In this document: in pieces, positions 3,444-12,012 of the stretch
Layout: every line of letters begins with the position of its first letter
Numbering within the stretch: position 1 is the stretch's first letter
The notes under the pieces: model-generated
What the model was told of the DNA's origin: nothing
Database searches by the model: none
What the model saw: only the letters and a program-made list of their open reading frames with translations
Origin: Escherichia coli
GTDB taxonomy: Bacteria; Pseudomonadota; Gammaproteobacteria; Enterobacterales; Enterobacteriaceae
Reading direction: 5' to 3' (one strand)
Assembly: GCF_024223415.1 (NCBI RefSeq)
Contig: NZ_CP100500.1
Length of the DNA: 64,000 nt
Position numbers and translations under genes: made by a program

Positions 3444-3760
3444 TGAACACGGATAACACACAAAATATCCTGATGGACAGCCCGGAAGCACTGGGGCACG
3501 CACTGTGTAATCTGCTGCCGGAGATGGTGCAGGGTTTCCGCGTGGTGACACCTTCCGGTGAAATCTGCGTACCCGCACAGGAGGCGCATCCGTTTGTACT
3601 GACGATGGAAGTGATGCTGATGCAGCAGATAAGACGTCTGCAGCATCAGTCAGCATTGCGCCCGGCAGTTGCGCCGCAACCGGTAAATAACGTGGTGAAA
3701 ACCTGCGATGGCGAAACACTGTACGACCTCGCCAGAAAAATTGCCGCCAGAATCGGATAA
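3443..3760 (+). CDS. hypothetical protein (105 aa)
   Basis: start overlaps upstream stop (ATGA-type coupling); no motif recognised. Confidence 0.35.
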   Translation: MNTDNTQNILMDSPEALGHALCNLLPEMVQGFRVVTPSGEICVPAQEAHPFVLTMEVMLMQQIRRLQHQSALRPAVAPQPVNNVVKTCDGETLYDLARKIAARIG

Positions 3761-3775
3761 CAGGGAAGACAAGCT

Positions 3776-5545
3776 ATGACCCCGGCACTGACTGAAAAAC
3801 TTGTTGAAACAGCCCGCGCGGCACGTAATGCAGGGCATGGTAAACGCGGTGCAATATACGACGCTGCCTGTGCTGAACTTGGCATGTCCCGCGCCACTCT
3901 GCTGCGCAGGCTGAAGGAGGTCTCTGTGACTGATAAACGCAAAAAACGCGCCGATGCCGGACGCAGCACCCTGACCCGCGACGAAGCCGCGCTGATATCT
4001 GCCACACTACGTGAGGCCACCCGCAAGAACGGTAAGCGTCTCTATTCCATCGCGGATGCAGTGGAAACCCTGCGGGCTAACGGCTTTATCTCCGCAGGCA
4101 GAACAGATGAAACCACCGGTGAGTTTTTCCCGTTGTCCGAAGATGCCATCAGTCGTGCCCTGCGTAACTATGGCCTGCACCCGGAACAACTGGATGCCCC
4201 TGCACCGCATACCGAAGTGGCCAGTCTGCACCCCAATCATGTCTGGCAGATTGACGCCTCACTCTGCACGCTTTACTACCTGAGCAATGGACATAAAGGG
4301 CTGCAGGTGATGGACAGCGCGAAATTCTACAAGAACAAGCCCGCTAACCTTGCCCGTATCGCCAGTGACCGCGTGTGGAGTTACGAGATTACCGACCATG
4401 CCAGCGGCTGGATTTACGTTGAGTATGTGACGGGTGCGGAATCCGGTGAGAACCTGTGTTCTGTGCTTATCAACGCCATGCAGGAGCGTGGCGGCGCAGA
4501 CGTGCTGCACGGCGTGCCAAAAATACTCTATCTCGACCCCGGCTCGGCAAACACCGCGGGTATGACGAAAAACATGTGCCGCTCACTGGGCATCGACCTG
4601 ATAGCGCACAAGCCGCATAACGCCCGCGCCACCGGACAGGTGGAAAAGGCGCGTGACATTATCGAACGCAAGCTGGAGCCGGGTCTGAAGTTCCGGCCGG
4701 TTCACAGTCTGGAAGAACTCAACGCGCTGGCCGCGAAATGGCGCAGCCACTTTAACGCCACGGCTGTTCACAGCCGCCACGGTAAAACCCGCACGGATAT
4801 CTGGCTGAAGATTACTGCTGAGCAGCTGAAAAAAGCGCCTTCCGTTGAGGTATGTCGTGAACTGGCTGTGGCGGCACCAGAACTCCGCAAAGTCACGCCA
4901 AAACTTCGTGTCTCGTTCCGGGGCACTGAATTTGACGTATCAACGGTACCGGGCGTACTGGTCGGTGAAAAACTGATGATTACCCGTAACCCGTGGCGCA
5001 GCGATGTGGCACAGGTGGTTCTGACCGGTGAGGACGGCCACGAGACGTTCTTCCTGGTCGAAGAGGTCAGAAAGAACGAGTTTGGCTTTGCTGAAGGCGC
5101 GGCGGTATTTGGCGAAAGTTACAAAGCCCTGCCGGAAACCCCGGCGCAGATGGCGGCAAAAGAAACCGAAGCGCTGGTCACCGGTACAGACAACGCCGCA
5201 GATGCAGCTGCCGCACGCAAGGCGAAGGCGCTGCCGTTCGGCGGGCGGCTTGACCCGTATAAACATATTGATGACGCCACACTTCCGGCCTGTATACCGA
5301 AGCGTGGTCAGGCCTCTGACGTACGCGGACCGCGCACTGAACAGCGTCCCATGACTCATGTGGAGGCCGCGAAAGCCCTGCGCGGGAAGTTTAGCGCAAA
5401 CGGCCTGACCTGGACGCCGGAACATTACCGCCAGTTAACGGCACAGTACCCGGACGGCGTACCGGAAGCCGCACTGGATGAAGTCATGGCCACGCTGACC
5501 ACGCCGGCCCGCAGCAGCGTTATCAGCATTGTTAACGGCAACTGA
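3776..5545 (+). CDS. Mu-like DDE transposase (MuA-type, integrase catalytic core)
   Basis: 589 aa; N-terminal HTH region, central rve-like core (HVWQIDAS...), immediately followed by an AAA+ B-like gene as in transposable phages. Confidence 0.85.
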   Translation: MTPALTEKLVETARAARNAGHGKRGAIYDAACAELGMSRATLLRRLKEVSVTDKRKKRADAGRSTLTRDEAALISATLREATRKNGKRLYSIADAVETLRANGFISAGRTDETTGEFFPLSEDAISRALRNYGLHPEQLDAPAPHTEVASLHPNHVWQIDASLCTLYYLSNGHKGLQVMDSAKFYKNKPANLARIASDRVWSYEITDHASGWIYVEYVTGAESGENLCSVLINAMQERGGADVLHGVPKILYLDPGSANTAGMTKNMCRSLGIDLIAHKPHNARATGQVEKARDIIERKLEPGLKFRPVHSLEELNALAAKWRSHFNATAVHSRHGKTRTDIWLKITAEQLKKAPSVEVCRELAVAAPELRKVTPKLRVSFRGTEFDVSTVPGVLVGEKLMITRNPWRSDVAQVVLTGEDGHETFFLVEEVRKNEFGFAEGAAVFGESYKALPETPAQMAAKETEALVTGTDNAADAAAARKAKALPFGGRLDPYKHIDDATLPACIPKRGQASDVRGPRTEQRPMTHVEAAKALRGKFSANGLTWTPEHYRQLTAQYPDGVPEAALDEVMATLTTPARSSVISIVNGN

Positions 5546-5555
5546 GGAGGGAAAC

Positions 5556-6722
5556 ATGCTGGTACTGAAGCAGCAACTGAAAGAGGCCCGTATTCCACAG
5601 GCGGTGGCGGCGAGAGCTGTCGATGTTTCTGAGGCCACGCTGGCCCAGATTGTGAATCATAACGCGTGGCCCCGCACCAGCCCCGGAGAAGTGCGCCGGC
5701 GTCTTGCGTCCTGGCTGGAAAGTCAGGGGATTGATACAACGAAGAGTTTTGATGCTGTACAGGGCGCGGCCACGCCCCGTACAGCGAGTACCACAGATAA
5801 AACGAGCCTCAGTGAGGAAGAGAATATGTTACTCAAAAAACAGGTGTTATTTCCAGCAACCAAAAAAGCGTTTGGTCTTTTCCGTGACCCGTTCGCCGAC
5901 GAAGCCATGCAGGGTTCTGATGATGTGTTCACCACCCCGGACATTCGCTACGTGCGTGAGGCGCTGTACCAGACAGCCCGTCATGGTGGGTTTATGGCCG
6001 TCATCGGTGAGTCCGGTGCGGGTAAATCCACGCTGCGCCGCGACCTGACTGAACGTATTAACCGCGAGAATGCGCCGGTAATTGTTATCGAGCCATACAT
6101 CATTGCCATGGAAGACAACGATGTGAAAGGGAAAACCCTGAAGGCTGCAGCGATTGCCGAAGCCATTATCAGTACCATCGCACCACTGGAAAGCATCAGA
6201 CGCAGTCAGGACGCCCGCTTTCGCCAGTTGCATCGCGTCCTGAAAGGCAGCAGCCAGGCGGGGTTCAGCCACGTTCTGGTGATTGAGGAGGCCCACAGTC
6301 TGCCCATTCCGACACTGAAACACCTCAAACGCTTTTTTGAGCTGGAGTCCGGTTTCAAAAAACTGCTGTCCATCGTGCTGATTGGCCAGCCGGAACTGGC
6401 GACAAAACTGTCTGAACGCAATATGGAAGTCCGTGAAGTCGTTCAGCGCTGTGAGGTGGTCGAACTTCTGCCTCTGGACAATAACCTTGAAGAATTTCTG
6501 ACGTTCAAACTGCAACGGGCCGGTAAACAACTGACGGACATTATGGACGCCAGCGCAGTGGATGCCATACGTGCCCGCCTGAGCAATCCGGGAAGTCATC
6601 GTAAAAATATGGTCAGCCTGCTGTATCCGCTGGCCGTCAGTAACCTGGTAATAGCCGCCATGAATCTGGCCGCTGAAATCGGGGTTCCACAGGTCAACGC
6701 TGACGTTGTCAAAGGAGTTTAA
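5556..6722 (+). CDS. MuB-like AAA+ ATPase (transposition target-DNA activator)
   Basis: Walker A GESGAGKST, Walker B-like VLVIEEAH, N-terminal HTH; start set at ATG 5556 with GAGGAGG RBS (track ORF begins 5529). Confidence 0.8.
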   Translation: MLVLKQQLKEARIPQAVAARAVDVSEATLAQIVNHNAWPRTSPGEVRRRLASWLESQGIDTTKSFDAVQGAATPRTASTTDKTSLSEEENMLLKKQVLFPATKKAFGLFRDPFADEAMQGSDDVFTTPDIRYVREALYQTARHGGFMAVIGESGAGKSTLRRDLTERINRENAPVIVIEPYIIAMEDNDVKGKTLKAAAIAEAIISTIAPLESIRRSQDARFRQLHRVLKGSSQAGFSHVLVIEEAHSLPIPTLKHLKRFFELESGFKKLLSIVLIGQPELATKLSERNMEVREVVQRCEVVELLPLDNNLEEFLTFKLQRAGKQLTDIMDASAVDAIRARLSNPGSHRKNMVSLLYPLAVSNLVIAAMNLAAEIGVPQVNADVVKGV

Positions 6723-6724
6723 TA

Positions 6725-6994
6725 ATGAAATCCACCACAGGTATCAACCAGCAAATCAGCAAAGTGCAGTCAGCCATTATGGCGCTTAAGGCGACGAACA
6801 CGGATGTACAAAGCATCACCATCAGGGGTAACAAACCTGTCATCCGCGTTTCCCGGAGTGCGCATTGCATGCGCATGCTTGAGCAGGGAAAGGCCTGTTA
6901 TCTGTATACCGGACATGACCACAGGGGATATTTCCGTCAGGGCGTTTTCGAACTGCACGGCTGTCGCGTCGTGTGGCCGGAATCTTTGTGGTAA
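6725..6994 (+). CDS. hypothetical early-region protein (89 aa)
   Basis: AAGGAG RBS; no motif recognised. Confidence 0.45.
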   Translation: MKSTTGINQQISKVQSAIMALKATNTDVQSITIRGNKPVIRVSRSAHCMRMLEQGKACYLYTGHDHRGYFRQGVFELHGCRVVWPESLW

Positions 6995-7021
6995 TCAGCA
7001 CAACCGGAGAAATCATAAAAT

Positions 7022-7552
7022 ATGGCAAAAAGTACAAAAGGGGCAAAACGTATCAAGGCCGCAGCGGCACTCTGGGTACCAGGGACACGCGAAGAGGTCA
7101 TTGAGGGAATCAGACTACTCGGTGACGCACAACGTGAACTGGTCAGGGCTGAAACAGAAATGAATGACGCCATTGGCGATATCACCGCACGTTATGCCCC
7201 GCTCACCGAGAGCCTGAAAAAACGCATGGCCGAACTGCAGTCCGGTATTCAGACATGGTGTGAGGCACACCGTGATGAACTGACCGGCAACGGGAAGGTG
7301 AAGTTCGCTAACCTCACCACCGGCGAGGTGCAGTGGCGAAACCGTCCGCCATCAGTCAGTATCCGTGGGGCGGATAATGTTATTGAATTACTGAGACGTC
7401 TGGGGCTTGAGCGCTTTATTCGTGTAAAAGAGGAAATAAATAAAGACGCTATCCTGAATGAAAAAGAGGCCGTGAAAAATATTCCCGGTATTTCCATTAA
7501 AAGCGACATTGAGGATTTTTCAATAATTCCTTTTGAGCAGGATGTGCAGTAA
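7022..7552 (+). CDS. gam: Gam-like host-nuclease inhibitor (Mu Gam family, DNA-end binding)
   Basis: 176 aa; closely resembles phage Mu Gam along its whole length as recalled (N-terminal KRIK..AAA, central ETEMND, C-terminal EDFSIIPFEQ). Confidence 0.85.
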   Translation: MAKSTKGAKRIKAAAALWVPGTREEVIEGIRLLGDAQRELVRAETEMNDAIGDITARYAPLTESLKKRMAELQSGIQTWCEAHRDELTGNGKVKFANLTTGEVQWRNRPPSVSIRGADNVIELLRRLGLERFIRVKEEINKDAILNEKEAVKNIPGISIKSDIEDFSIIPFEQDVQ

Positions 7553-7649
7553 ACACACCACGTTAATTATTTAATAAAAACATTTTCTTTTTTATTCCGG
7601 CGTCAGCGCCGCGGGCTTCTGCACGCCGGAAACAGAGGAGAATTAAATC

Positions 7650-7844
7650 ATGATATTTAAATGTATTCAGTGCGAGAGGGATATAACAGCCCTGCGTTTT
7701 CACAGCGCCATCGCCGTGATGTCCGGTAAATACCACATCCCTGCGGTACGCGTCACCCTGGTCTGTCCGTACTGCAGCCAGCATTTTTCGGCAGACGTGC
7801 CCGTCATGGAATTCTCCCGCCCTGACAGGGAGGACGCGCAATGA
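7650..7844 (+). CDS. small zinc-ribbon protein (two CxxC pairs)
   Basis: CIQC ... CPYC; GAGGAG RBS. Confidence 0.45.
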   Translation: MIFKCIQCERDITALRFHSAIAVMSGKYHIPAVRVTLVCPYCSQHFSADVPVMEFSRPDREDAQ

Positions 7845-8113
7845 TTACCCCACAGGAAGCACGACAGCGCACCCGAACCCTTGTTGAACACTATGTCAAC
7901 GAGTGTGAATGTCGCGACCTCACCGATGTGAAGCACGTCCTGACGGCGCTAATCAGCATGGCCACACAGGCCATTGTGGCAACCAACGGAAAGGCGGCTG
8001 CCCTGCAGGTACTGATGAACACACTCACCCACACGGCAGAGCATGAGGTGCCGTACCGGATGGAAACCACTGCAGAAGGCGGCCTGCACATCACCGTCAG
8101 CCGGAAGCACTGA
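7841..8113 (+). CDS. hypothetical protein (90 aa)
   Basis: start overlaps upstream stop (ATGA); no motif recognised. Confidence 0.4.
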   Translation: MITPQEARQRTRTLVEHYVNECECRDLTDVKHVLTALISMATQAIVATNGKAAALQVLMNTLTHTAEHEVPYRMETTAEGGLHITVSRKH

Positions 8114-8122
8114 GGGTGCGGC

Positions 8123-8419
8123 ATGACACGAAACACCGAACTCACCCGCACCGCCCTCTACCGTCTGGCCCTGCAGCGTTTCGGGCCGGATGCACAGGCC
8201 CTGAAACTGACAGAAGAGGCCGCTGAACTGGCGGCCAGTGCTGCCCGCAACCTGAACGGACAGGGCAGCGAAAGTGACCTCGCGGCAGAGCTGGCAGACG
8301 TGGAAATCATGACAGAGCAACTGCGCCTTCAGGGGATGGACCGGCTGATTGACTTCCACAAACAGAAAAAACTGGAACGTCTGGCTGCACGACTGGGCGT
8401 GATTTACACGAACGAGTAA
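8123..8419 (+). CDS. MazG-like nucleotide pyrophosphohydrolase candidate (all-alpha NTP-PPase fold)
   Basis: 98 aa; EExxE ... ExxD acidic motif pair (EEAAELAAS ... AAELADVEIMTEQL) at MazG-like spacing. Confidence 0.5.
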   Translation: MTRNTELTRTALYRLALQRFGPDAQALKLTEEAAELAASAARNLNGQGSESDLAAELADVEIMTEQLRLQGMDRLIDFHKQKKLERLAARLGVIYTNE

Positions 8420-8433
8420 CCGGGAGGCATTCA

Positions 8434-8556
8434 ATGGCTGACATACTCAGGGAAATCACCGCATGGACACTGATTCTTACTGGTCTGGCGACATGCCTCA
8501 GTGCGGGAGCAGCCCTGGCTGCCCTGCTGATGCACATAACAACACAGTGGTTATGA
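8434..8556 (+). CDS. small hydrophobic peptide (40 aa, one predicted TM helix)
   Basis: not in supplied track (<60 aa); GGGAGG RBS about 7 nt upstream of ATG; hand-counted coordinates. Confidence 0.3.
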   Translation: MADILREITAWTLILTGLATCLSAGAALAALLMHITTQWL

Positions 8557-8645
8557 GAAAAGCTTAAAGCAGCATACAGCCTGAAAGAGCTGTCCGACGC
8601 TGTCCGGGCATGGAAACGGCAGAAAAATACCGGAGATACAGAACA

Positions 8646-9329
8646 ATGACAGACCAGAATAAACACATTGAGAAACTGAAAAAGTTGCTGGCGCTGGCCG
8701 CATCCGGCAACCCGCATGAGGCTGCTCTGGCACTGCGCCGCGCCCGTAAACTGATGGATGTTCACGGCATCACACATTCCGACATCGCCATGAGTGATAT
8801 TGATGAAACCATCAGTCACTACTGGCCGACAGGCAGCCTCCGTCCGCCGCGCTACATGCCAGGGCTGATGAACATCATCCGCGAGGCATTTGGTGTTAAC
8901 TCCATCATTCACCCCGGCACATATCCGGGTGTGGGGTTCTACGGCAAACGGGAACGGGCCGCACTGGCCGCGTACACCTGGGAAGTGCTGGCCCGTCAGC
9001 TGAAAAAGGCGCGTCAGCAGTATATCAGTGCACAGAACAAAAGAATAAAAACCGCCACCCGCACCAGCCGTGGAGACCAGTTTGCTGAAGGCTGGGTGCT
9101 GGCCGTTATCAGTGAAATACAGTCCTTCGCCCTGACCAATGACGAACGTGAACTGATGCAGCAGTGGCTGGAACATAAATACCCGCAGACGCAAACCACC
9201 AGGGCGCGTAAACCGGGAAGAAGTCGCAATGGCGACGCCTCGCGCTATGCGGGGTTTCGAGAAGGGCAGAACGTCAGACTGCACCGACCGGTCAGTGGGC
9301 GGGAACAGCAGAAACTGGAGGCCAGATGA
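8646..9329 (+). CDS. DUF2786-like phage protein
   Basis: track ORF 8610..9329 trimmed to Met with GGAGA RBS; N-terminal KLLALAASGNPHEAALALRRARKLM motif typical of this family. Confidence 0.5.
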   Translation: MTDQNKHIEKLKKLLALAASGNPHEAALALRRARKLMDVHGITHSDIAMSDIDETISHYWPTGSLRPPRYMPGLMNIIREAFGVNSIIHPGTYPGVGFYGKRERAALAAYTWEVLARQLKKARQQYISAQNKRIKTATRTSRGDQFAEGWVLAVISEIQSFALTNDERELMQQWLEHKYPQTQTTRARKPGRSRNGDASRYAGFREGQNVRLHRPVSGREQQKLEAR

Positions 9330-9556
9330 TGACGTTATCAGGTAACAGCCGGAAATTAAAAGCCTGCCGAATATCTGCCAGATACCTTTTTGCCCGCGCC
9401 TTTTTTAAGAACGTCAGGCCGGGGATCACAATTGGTGTTATTGCCGGACGCGAACAGGTTGAAAAATACATGTCAGGTGCATGGTGGAATAAAGACCCTG
9501 TCATTGCTGCCCGTAATATTCATATCAGTTGGGGAGATATTCAGAATGACTGCTGA
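9326..9556 (+). CDS. hypothetical protein (76 aa)
   Basis: GGAGG RBS; overlaps neighbours head-to-tail. Confidence 0.35.
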   Translation: MMTLSGNSRKLKACRISARYLFARAFFKNVRPGITIGVIAGREQVEKYMSGAWWNKDPVIAARNIHISWGDIQNDC

Positions 9557-9761
9557 ATCTGTTGTATGTGCCCTGTTCTGGTATTGTTTTGTCGGTTGGT
9601 GTACTGCTGAACTGCACCGCCGTTCAGGGTTTTATTCACGTTACAGTGGTGCCGGTTACTGGATTAGCTGGTCGGTGATGTTCCTGTGCTGGCCTGTGGC
9701 ATTTCCTTTATATGTCGATTATATCGGTGATGCAGGCAGAAGGAGCAACGATGATGACTAA
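9546..9761 (+). CDS. small Trp/Cys-rich membrane protein (71 aa)
   Basis: track ORF 9390..9761 trimmed to ATG 9546; hydrophobic. Confidence 0.35.
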   Translation: MTAESVVCALFWYCFVGWCTAELHRRSGFYSRYSGAGYWISWSVMFLCWPVAFPLYVDYIGDAGRRSNDDD

Positions 9762-10203
9762 ACAACGTCTTATCCAGCTTATCCATATTGCCCGTAATGA
9801 ACTGGGTATGGATGAAGACACCTACCGCCAGATGTTACAGGGGCTGACCGGTAAAGCCTCAACCAAAGGAATGGATACCACACAACTAAACTGCGTGCTG
9901 GAATCCATGAAAAGGAAAGGCTTTCGCGTTAAGCCTGCCGGAAAAGCCAGCTCCGGTTTACCGCTGGATAACCATCCGCAGTCCAGGAAAATCCGTGCGC
10001 TATGGCTTGAAATGGCTGCTGCCGGCATTGTTCGTGACCGTTCAGAAAATGCATTAGCGCGGTGGATCAAGCGGGAAACGGGCATCAGCGCCCTGCGCTG
10101 GCTCAATACTGAACAGGCAAGCAGTGTTATTGAGAAACTGAAGAAGTGGCAGCACAGAGCTGCGGGAGTAAAACATGAGCGACCTGAATCAGTTTCGAAG
10201 TAA
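9751..10203 (+). CDS. gemA: GemA-like protein (Mu GemA family)
   Basis: N-terminal KQRLIQLIHIARNELGMDEDTYRQML pattern; positioned directly upstream of mor as in Mu. Confidence 0.75.
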   Translation: MMTKQRLIQLIHIARNELGMDEDTYRQMLQGLTGKASTKGMDTTQLNCVLESMKRKGFRVKPAGKASSGLPLDNHPQSRKIRALWLEMAAAGIVRDRSENALARWIKRETGISALRWLNTEQASSVIEKLKKWQHRAAGVKHERPESVSK

Positions 10204-10573
10204 AGGGCCGGAACTCCTGGTGGAGCTGGCACAGCATACCTCTGAGACCGTTCGCGAGATTATTGATATTGAGCCCGCAATTGCCGACCAGATTGGTCAG
10301 GCCGTCGCGAACCGAATGATGCAGGTCTGGGGCGGGCAAAACGTTTATTTCCCGATGGGCATGGTATGGAAGGTCAGTCAGCGCGACCGGGAAATCTTCA
10401 GGGAGTTTAACGGACGCAACCACCACGAACTGGCCCGCAAGTTTGGTGTTTCGCTTCAGTGGGTCTACAGCGTGGTTAAGCGGGTCAGAAAAGAAGAACT
10501 GGATCGGATGCAGGGCAGGTTGTTTGATGAAGATCTGCCAGAGGAGACGAAAGACGTTAACAAATCCAGATAA
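10175..10573 (+). CDS. mor: Mor-family transcriptional activator (Mu middle operon regulator)
   Basis: 132 aa; C-terminal HTH REIFREFNGRNHHELARKFGVSLQWVYSVVKR typical of Mor/C family. Confidence 0.85.
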   Translation: MSDLNQFRSKGPELLVELAQHTSETVREIIDIEPAIADQIGQAVANRMMQVWGGQNVYFPMGMVWKVSQRDREIFREFNGRNHHELARKFGVSLQWVYSVVKRVRKEELDRMQGRLFDEDLPEETKDVNKSR

Positions 10574-10618
10574 TTCCTGCTTGTTAAAGTCCTTTCAAAA
10601 ATCTCCTTATTGTATAAA

Positions 10619-10649
10619 AGCACGGTAGACCCCGTACCGTGCTTTTTTT
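10619..10649 (+). terminator. rho-independent terminator downstream of mor
   Basis: GC-rich hairpin AGCACGGTA...TACCGTGCT followed by a run of 7 T. Confidence 0.5.
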
Positions 10650-10687
10650 ATGCTCTCTCTTTAGTATTCAGGATGCAGGGAGAAAAT

Positions 10688-11320
10688 ATGTTTGACGTTT
10701 CGTTGTTAAATCTGCCATGGGCAACACTGGTGACCCTGACCAGTGGCTATATTGGGTATTTTATTGCGAATGTGGGACTGAAGGATCACCACAAGCCCAT
10801 TGAGGTGACTTTTTCTTCGCTGATTTTTGGCCTGACAGCAATGATGGCTTACCAGGCTGTTATGTGGGCAGGTCTGAATGCCTGGCTGGCAACACCACCA
10901 GCACTTCTGTGTGCCGTTACATGCGGTGCGTGGTGGCGCAGGTACGGTCGCAAATGGATGTACAGATTACTGTGGAATAATGATATTTCATGGTCTGACG
11001 ATACCAGCTCAGCATGGCAGGCAATGTTTGATCAAACAGGCTTCAGCGTTACCGAGGTCAGAGTGATTCTTCGCGATGGTTCCGGTATGATGTCACGGCT
11101 GCCAGGGAACTTTGAACAGTGGCCTAACGGTCCGTTTACCCTGGGGAATAAAGGCGATATGGTTCTTTACGTCACGCACAGCAGCCCTTCAGGCAGTAAC
11201 GAATGGGAAGAGTATAAAGGCGTGGTTGATAAGTACTGGGGAGCTCTGGCAACCTATATTCCAGCAGATCAGATTGCCAGAGTGGAGATCAGGCGCGTTC
11301 GTGCAACGAACGATGAATGA
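10688..11320 (+). CDS. membrane protein (210 aa), N-terminal TM helices plus soluble C-terminal domain
   Basis: track ORF 10610..11320 trimmed to ATG 10688 (GGGAGAA RBS) because the upstream part overlaps the mor terminator. Confidence 0.5.
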   Translation: MFDVSLLNLPWATLVTLTSGYIGYFIANVGLKDHHKPIEVTFSSLIFGLTAMMAYQAVMWAGLNAWLATPPALLCAVTCGAWWRRYGRKWMYRLLWNNDISWSDDTSSAWQAMFDQTGFSVTEVRVILRDGSGMMSRLPGNFEQWPNGPFTLGNKGDMVLYVTHSSPSGSNEWEEYKGVVDKYWGALATYIPADQIARVEIRRVRATNDE

Positions 11321-11670
11321 TGTTTATTTTTTCCCTGGGGCAGGGGCTGCCGGCATAGTGGTTTTATTGGCAGAGGAAGACGATTCTCCTTTTCTACCGG
11401 AATCGCGCTCGAACGTCACGATGTGCTTGCTTTTGGGATTTTCTGAGTAATCCAGGCTATCATGCTTATTGTTTTGAGTAGTCATTGGAATCATCCTTTT
11501 TGTTGCGGGTCATGTTTCAGCAAACTCGATTCTAAGTTGCCAGGAAGGATGATTTCAATGCCCGACTTATCTATCGTATAGCGGAAAAGAATTTCAGTTC
11601 TGTTCACCAGAACCCATGTTAACCCACTCCAATTCGTTATTTATCTCACGGATCCCCCTTCATTTATCTC

Positions 11671-12012
11671 ATGTCTGATCAGGTGCGTAAGCTCTCTGGC
11701 GGCAACCAGCAGAAAGTTATCCTCGCGCGCTGCATGGCGCTCAATCCACGGGTGTTGATTGTCGATGAGCCGACGCGTGGCATCGACGTTGGAACCAAAT
11801 CGGAAGTGCACCAGGTGTTGTTTGATATGGCGAAAAAGGGCGTGGCGGTGATCGTGATCTCCTCCGATCTGCTTGAAGTGATGGCGGTGTCTGACCGGAT
11901 CATCACCCTTAGTGAAGGCCGGTTAACTGGCGAGATCCACGGTGACGACGCTAACGAAGAACGGCTGATGACGATGATGGCTATCAACCACAACGCCCTG
12001 AACGCGGCATAA
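11671..12012 (+). pseudogene. 5'-truncated sugar ABC transporter ATP-binding protein (C-terminal ~113 aa only)
   Basis: LSGGNQQK signature, Walker B LIVDEPTRGIDV; the N-terminal ~390 aa expected for a RbsA-like two-domain ATPase are missing. Confidence 0.8.

Follow-up and report, generated by a model that had tools for sequence, protein, structure and literature searches.

Among the described all-alpha nucleoside triphosphate (NTP) pyrophosphatases, DCTPP1 is tetrameric and prefers dCTP and 5-modified dCTP, iMazG reportedly forms tetramers and favours dCTP and dATP, and MazZ of cyanophage S-2L works in a 2-aminoadenine genome pathway. The MazG protein of cyanophage S-PM2 is active on (d)NTPs with a preference for dGTP and dCTP, and it shows neither binding nor hydrolysis of (p)ppGpp (PMC6850273). 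The Mg2+ ligands of such enzymes follow an E..E / E..D pattern and comprise E119, E122, E138 and D141 in the MazG of Mycobacterium tuberculosis (Mtb) and E46, E49, E74 and D77 in the dUTPase of C. jejuni (PMC10014863). In the present study, a 64,000-nucleotide (nt) stretch of the Escherichia coli contig NZ_CP100500.1, referred to as the window, was analysed for a gene at positions 8123-8419 which lies in the early region of a Mu-like prophage and encodes a MazG-like protein of 98 amino acids (aa). The analysis supports placing this small protein, which has a single domain, in the all-alpha NTP pyrophosphatase (MazG/HisE/dimeric-dUTPase) superfamily, and we assign a probability of roughly 0.72 to the reading that it is an active (d)NTP pyrophosphohydrolase. 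Its MazG-type identity is already public in RefSeq and the PHROGs; the finding is correct but ordinary. The gene and its sequence elements are as follows.

8123..8419, + strand: MazG-like coding sequence, 98 aa, ATG start, stop codon included (open reading frame (ORF) list, PHROG 2245, RefSeq identity and the ratio of nonsynonymous to synonymous substitution rates, dN/dS)
8112..8116, + strand: candidate Shine-Dalgarno-like GAGGG, 6 nt 5' of the MazG-like ATG, as read from the sequence
8213..8299, + strand: codons 31-59, EEAAELAASAARNLNGQGSESDLAAELAD, predicted metal-binding acidic motif on both long helices (regular expression EE..E.{12,28}E..D, conservation and register with 5ie9)
8303..8320, + strand: codons 61-66, E-I-M-T-E-Q, family-specific conserved stretch directly after ExxD (two alignments)
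8369..8383, + strand: codons 83-87, K-L-E-R-L, in which the basic K83 and R86 are candidate phosphate-binding residues (K83, R86 and L87 at least 90% conserved)

The first-pass annotation had proposed the gene as a candidate MazG/HisE-type NTP pyrophosphatase, and this assignment was borne out by profile matches, by conservation across 83 homologues and by the fold matches. PHROG 2245, "nucleoside triphosphate pyrophosphohydrolase", matched residues 1-97 with E = 4.8e-34, and three further MazG-type PHROGs were matched weakly. The protein of strain N61 is identical to that of the window and is listed as WP_000197788.1 with the RefSeq name "nucleoside triphosphate pyrophosphohydrolase family protein"; JGI has already named one close relative "NTP pyrophosphatase (non-canonical NTP hydrolase)", and "hypothetical" is the label in older RefSeq annotations and in phage PhiKM. 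The Pfam scan of the query returned only PRA-PH (PF01503, E = 0.041). When the 83 homologues were scanned singly, Pfam MazG (PF03819) was touched by 39 of the 83 at E <= 0.1 and by 5 at E <= 1e-3, PRA-PH by 14 and MazG-like (PF12643) by 7. The Pfam membership of the protein is thus transitive and not direct, since the query itself reaches only PRA-PH at 0.041 whereas some of its homologues reach MazG. With NCBIfam the only match was HisI/HisE TIGR03188 at 14.5 bits (E = 0.031), for which the curated cut-off is 42.7 bits. An identity as the histidine-pathway enzyme HisE was rejected on this score below the cut-off and on a surrounding without his pathway context.

Searches with a family profile against the PDB gave four weak matches to solved MazG-like proteins (5ie9, 0.019; 2q73, 0.051; 2q5z, 0.073; 2gta, 0.29). 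A single-sequence phmmer search of the same database found only IWS1/EsrB, which was dismissed as spurious; profile searches are needed for this protein. A profile built from 19 close relatives was compared with 1.84 billion cluster representatives. At E <= 1e-3 it retrieved 10,820 proteins, of which 2,173 also passed E <= 1e-10; lengths of 90-110 aa predominated.

A structure prediction had been proposed as a check that might reveal a different fold, and it pointed to a MazG-type fold instead. AlphaFold with the 83-sequence alignment gave a model with a predicted local distance difference test (pLDDT) score of 96.2 and a predicted template modelling (pTM) score of 0.81, in which two long helices (residues 9-44 and 50-90) form a hairpin. 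A model made with 19 close homologues reached a pLDDT of 75 and was kept out of the fold search. The best Foldseek matches among solved structures were MazG, HisE, iMazG and DCTPP1 (probability 0.96), including 1vmg, 5ie9 and MazZ of cyanophage S-2L. Beyond the close relatives, the neighbours in AFDB50 were labelled "MazG catalytic core" and showed template modelling (TM) scores of 0.75-0.88 at 30-40% identity. As a monomer prediction, the model displays the fold of the superfamily, which is all-helical with two long antiparallel helices in a bundle. Several AFDB50 neighbours of ~95 aa are labelled 'Antitoxin' and one 'Terminase small subunit'; these labels are probably automatic mis-annotations.

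The paired acidic motif EExxE ... ExxD, for which the ORF had originally been singled out, is present at residues 31-59 and reads E31-E32-A-A-E35, followed by 20 residues and then E56-L-A-D59. By itself it is weak evidence. The expression EE..E.{12,28}E..D occurred in 0.34% of 100,000 shuffles of the MazG-like protein. Of the window's 425 stop-to-stop ORFs with 60 aa or more, 2 contained it. The second of these instances, at window positions 7091-7168, lies inside Gam and is a chance match, so that the pattern alone is not diagnostic. Residue conservation was assessed in a sample of 83 diverse homologous domains which were 31-68% identical to the query. Q25 and E31 were invariant in this alignment, and A16, G21, E32, E35, L36, E56, A58, D59, I62, M63, Q66, K83, R86 and L87 were conserved in at least 90% of the homologues. 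It is this conservation, with E31 unchanged throughout the sample and E32, E35, E56 and D59 among the residues kept in at least 90% of it, that sets the acidic motif apart from a chance occurrence. The family consensus is ...WG..aQ.....EE..EL......aEEIADVEIM.EQ......K..KL.RL.

Within the E-I-M-T-E-Q stretch I62, M63 and Q66 belong to the residues with at least 90% conservation, and E61 and E65 are invariant in close relatives; the stretch may provide extra acidic ligands or serve helix packing. By what is generally known of MazG enzymes, K83 and R86 would be triphosphate-binding residues. In the printed profile alignments, EExxEL and ExxD stand in register with EEmGEL ... EElGDV of PDB entry 5ie9. 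The MazG-like protein thus carries the four acidic ligands of the all-alpha NTP pyrophosphatase superfamily in the arrangement EExxE ... ExxD, and E32, E35, E56 and D59 would correspond to the magnesium ligands described for Mtb MazG and the C. jejuni dUTPase (PMC10014863).

The MazG-like gene is a real gene under purifying selection. Compared with its homologue in Klebsiella phage KP12, with which it shares 70% nucleotide identity, dN was 0.22 and dS 1.34, a dN/dS of ~0.16. The candidate ribosome-binding GAGGG (8112-8116) overlaps the TGA stop codon (8111-8113) of the upstream ORF 7841..8113, 9 nt separate this stop from the MazG-like ATG, and the downstream ORF begins 15 nt past the MazG-like stop with a GGGAGG ahead of it. 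Such tight spacing is as expected within an operon, as far as the sequence indicates. The reverse-strand ORFs overlapping the gene or its neighbourhood (7949..8434, 8307..9284 and 7563..7841) had no PHROG matches and were therefore taken as non-coding, and an Rfam scan of positions 6600-11800 matched no family.

For the proposed enzyme we infer catalytic activity, oligomeric state, expression timing, substrate and biological role as follows. Each 98-aa chain would form a hairpin of two long helices, and two (or four) such hairpins probably assemble into a bundle of helices, as is typical for this type of enzyme. By analogy with the superfamily, E32 and E35 of the first helix together with E56 and D59 of the second would coordinate one or several Mg2+ ions which bind the triphosphate of a (d)NTP, K83 and R86 would bind and neutralise the phosphates, and a water molecule would split the alpha-beta bond to yield (d)NMP and pyrophosphate (PPi). 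The gene is probably transcribed jointly with the transposase, gam and mor genes as the Mu-like prophage enters lytic growth. Its position in this early string implies activity during replicative transposition, a phase in which the enzyme would have the nucleotide pool as its target. The most likely role is the removal of non-canonical or unwanted (d)NTPs, in the sense of 'house-cleaning' or pool shaping.

The architectures of some relatives fit this enzyme model. P0052 and P0058 contain tandem MazG-like domains in one chain, one with an intact and the other with a degenerate motif set. They resemble covalent pseudo-dimers, which hints at a dimer for the MazG-like protein, and the duplications are consistent with a dimeric arrangement. 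In P0161 the MazG-like domain is fused to an N-terminal HAD-like domain that bears a DxD motif (Pfam Hydrolase_6, E = 0.0036; PHROG 1238, E = 8e-15); the two would pair naturally for the conversion of NTP to NMP to nucleoside, which is likewise consistent with an enzyme. Distant relatives and fusion proteins also match PHROG 2245. One locus of the HAD-MazG fusion (L005, 6001-7298; also L006 and L007), in a lambdoid module with RecT, DnaC-like and RusA genes, has a PemK/MazF-type toxin gene two genes downstream, a layout which recalls the mazE-mazF-mazG operon of E. coli. Other variants were single-domain members with degenerate motifs (P0142 and P0112), proteins with a conserved C-terminal extension of ~70 aa assigned to PHROG 24376 (P0051, P0054, P0055, P0063, P0077 and a protein of Klebsiella phage Kp4866-3, L012 ~3470-3800) and two Enterobacterales proteins with another, different extension (P0012 and P0032).

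Close relatives of the protein are confined to Enterobacterales prophages. Of 5,426 complete E. coli genomes, 620 (~11%) carried the gene, always on the chromosome, and the entire block from gam to the DUF2786 gene occurred in the same 620 genomes; the gene is thus a fixed part of the prophage lineage and not a swapped cassette. A 54% identical relative (P0050) immediately precedes gemA and mor in a Mu-like prophage other than that of the window, another relative resides in an integrase-bearing element and a further one in a lambdoid RecT/DnaC/RusA replication module. No MazG-like homologue was found in the first 11 kb of phage Mu, and tblastn against isolated phages gave only 4 records, so that the annotation of cultured phages contributes little here.

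The same chemistry might be directed against a host-made nucleotide and blunt abortive infection, a counter-defence or signalling function which we consider unlikely. Candidate substrates would be dITP (Kongming/RADAR-type systems), dUTP (dCTP-deaminase defences), the 3'-deoxy-3',4'-didehydro-NTPs (ddhNTPs) of viperin, (p)ppGpp and (p)ppApp. Such a function would suit the accessory slot in the early operon of a temperate phage, and dITP has been proven to act as an immune messenger, which phages need to counter (10.1101/2024.12.20.629578); MazG domains have moreover been predicted repeatedly, though not validated, in conflict systems, there on the defence side. The sole anti-Kongming factor in 10.1101/2024.12.20.629578 acts upstream on dAMP, and a direct dITP hydrolase is not reported there. 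Because that factor targets dAMP and not dITP, a phage enzyme hydrolysing dITP would be new relative to that study. Several observations argue in the opposite direction. PADLOC-DB contained no match at E <= 0.01 for the MazG-like protein or four neighbours, an anti-defence catalogue preprint names neither pyrophosphatases nor MazG, and the inability of the cyanophage MazG to bind or hydrolyse (p)ppGpp (PMC6850273) speaks against this alarmone as substrate. The gene is also a fixed component of its prophage and no swapped cassette, and no dNMP kinase was noticed in the phage, which would leave Kongming without an obvious trigger. Literature searches turned up no MazG-type anti-defence protein that has been characterised, and no mention of this prophage gene. 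A hydrolase dedicated to counter-defence, which would break down a host-made immune messenger of the NTP type or an antiviral nucleotide (such as dITP, dUTP or ddhNTPs), appears slightly more doubtful still.

Dimeric phage dUTPases moonlight as de-repressors, as is known from the literature on staphylococcal pathogenicity islands (SaPI). A mainly non-catalytic role of the MazG-like hairpin, as a binding or regulatory protein or an antitoxin-like partner with hydrolysis as a secondary trait, is nevertheless improbable in our case. It would accord with the 'Antitoxin' labels on some structural neighbours in AFDB, with the related fusion gene two genes upstream of a PemK/MazF-type toxin gene and with the loss of acidic residues in a few family members. 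The labels, however, are unreviewed automatic names, and neither the PHROG assignments nor the RefSeq annotation of this prophage placed a toxin gene among the neighbours. Across very divergent members, the MazG-like protein included, all four acidic ligands and both basic residues reach at least 90% conservation, which argues for a maintained active site. The reading as a random ORF that happens to contain an acidic motif is refuted: the motif does turn up occasionally by chance alone, with a second instance in gam, but the gene has thousands of homologues, a dN/dS of ~0.16, a high-confidence fold and conserved synteny, and it is the overlapping reverse-strand ORFs that lack family matches.

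An active (d)NTP pyrophosphohydrolase is hence the preferred reading, and its genomic setting was inspected in the window. The first-pass annotation had located the gene in a phage early region, and the co-directional genes for the transposase, the B-like ATPase, Gam, the MazG-like protein, GemA and Mor of a Mu-like prophage agree with this description.

3776..10573, + strand: co-directional early gene string from transposase to mor, containing the MazG-like gene (ORFs, PHROGs and the RefSeq/GenBank annotation of near-identical prophages)
3776..5545, + strand: transposase
5529..6722, + strand: B-like AAA ATPase, followed by one small gene before gam
7022..7552, + strand: gam
7650..7844, + strand: zinc-ribbon-like protein, 64 aa, two CxxC pairs, PHROG 3401
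7841..8113, + strand: 90-aa protein
8434-8556, + strand: small membrane-protein gene, PHROG 3958, directly downstream of the MazG-like gene
8610..9329, + strand: DUF2786 protein
9712..10203, + strand: gemA-like gene
10175..10573, + strand: mor
10616..10646, + strand: terminator-like hairpin with a 12-bp stem and T run just past mor (consensus scan; by itself no evidence of function)

Escherichia phage PhiKM, a phage assigned to Bcepmuvirus, matches the region at 97.8% identity, and by its sequence the host element is a Mu-like, BcepMu-like transposable prophage. The hairpin at 10616-10646 was the only strong terminator-like site on the + strand in a scan of 6600-11700 and is the probable end of the transcription unit. 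The same scan detected no promoter-like site on the + strand, and nothing specific to the MazG-like gene. In the gene calls of some relatives (P0026 and P0036), the zinc-ribbon-like and MazG-like proteins form one in-frame fusion, and the intervening 90-aa gene is absent there. The PHROG 3958 membrane protein measures 71 aa in PhiKM and N61 but is shortened to 40 aa in the window because of a TGG to TGA nonsense change at 8556; the rest of the frame is intact.

The last gene before the prophage end is a 236-aa ORF listed at 10610-11320. It overlaps the hairpin and matches PHROG 12870 only from residue 27, so its true start is probably the ATG near 10688. The prophage ends at ~11680, where the element appears to finish with ...TGATC(A), and from 11681 onwards it is E. 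coli chromosomes that the sequence matches, at 99.8% identity (~11671-12012). The junction lies inside the ATP-binding gene of a sugar ABC transporter of the myo-inositol (iol) cluster. This gene is disrupted, since the transposable prophage ends within it, as expected of the random insertion of a transposable phage. In the PhiKM record (L001, 11761-13018), tail-fibre and other late genes follow right after mor on the opposite strand, together with an odd 'Fe2+ ABC transporter permease' annotation. This 'partial genome' record seems to join two ends, because in chromosomal prophages the mor side is the prophage end.

As MazG-type pyrophosphatases are common in phages, the assignment adds little new knowledge. 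If the counter-defence reading were true, PHROG 2245, a very large family found in temperate phages, would be a widespread, unrecognised anti-defence class. The gene is a convenient entry to the question of dNTP cleaning versus counter-defence because it belongs to a family of more than 10,000 clusters, occurs in ~11% of complete E. coli genomes and resides in a host with easy genetics.

Among the known systems, the MazG-like protein differs from HisE / PRA-PH (PF01503; PDB 1YVW, 6J22), a phosphoribosyl-ATP-specific enzyme of histidine biosynthesis; the matches to it stayed below curated cut-offs, and no his genes lie near the MazG-like gene. The MazG protein of E. coli itself (mazEFG; PDB 3CRA/3CRC) has 263 aa in two tandem domains in contrast to the single domain of 98 aa, and it is tied to a toxin-antitoxin operon whereas the prophage gene is not. 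The hidden Markov model (HMM) of the family did not detect E. coli MazG, and when the family alignment was compared by hhalign with this MazG as a lone sequence, the result was misaligned and had a probability of 1%. DCTPP1 / RS21-C6 (PDB 7MU5, 2OIE, 2A3Q) is a eukaryotic protein with 20-24% identity to the MazG-like protein. The iMazG protein of a Vibrio integron cassette (PDB 2Q5Z, 2Q73) shows ~20% identity and derives from a gene cassette, not from a phage early operon. MazG SSO3215 of Sulfolobus solfataricus (PDB 1VMG) is an archaeal chromosomal protein from structural genomics which is related to the MazG-like protein only via profiles or structure, and we know of no substrate for it. Cyanophage S-2L MazZ (PDB 7ODY) is phage-encoded and belongs to the same fold family, with a weak Foldseek match (E about 2-3), but there is no sign of the 2-aminoadenine pathway in the prophage of the window. 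The MazG of S-PM2 stems from a lytic cyanomyovirus and shows no close sequence relation detected in our searches; like the predicted enzyme of the prophage, it is a phage-encoded NTP pyrophosphohydrolase of the MazG type.
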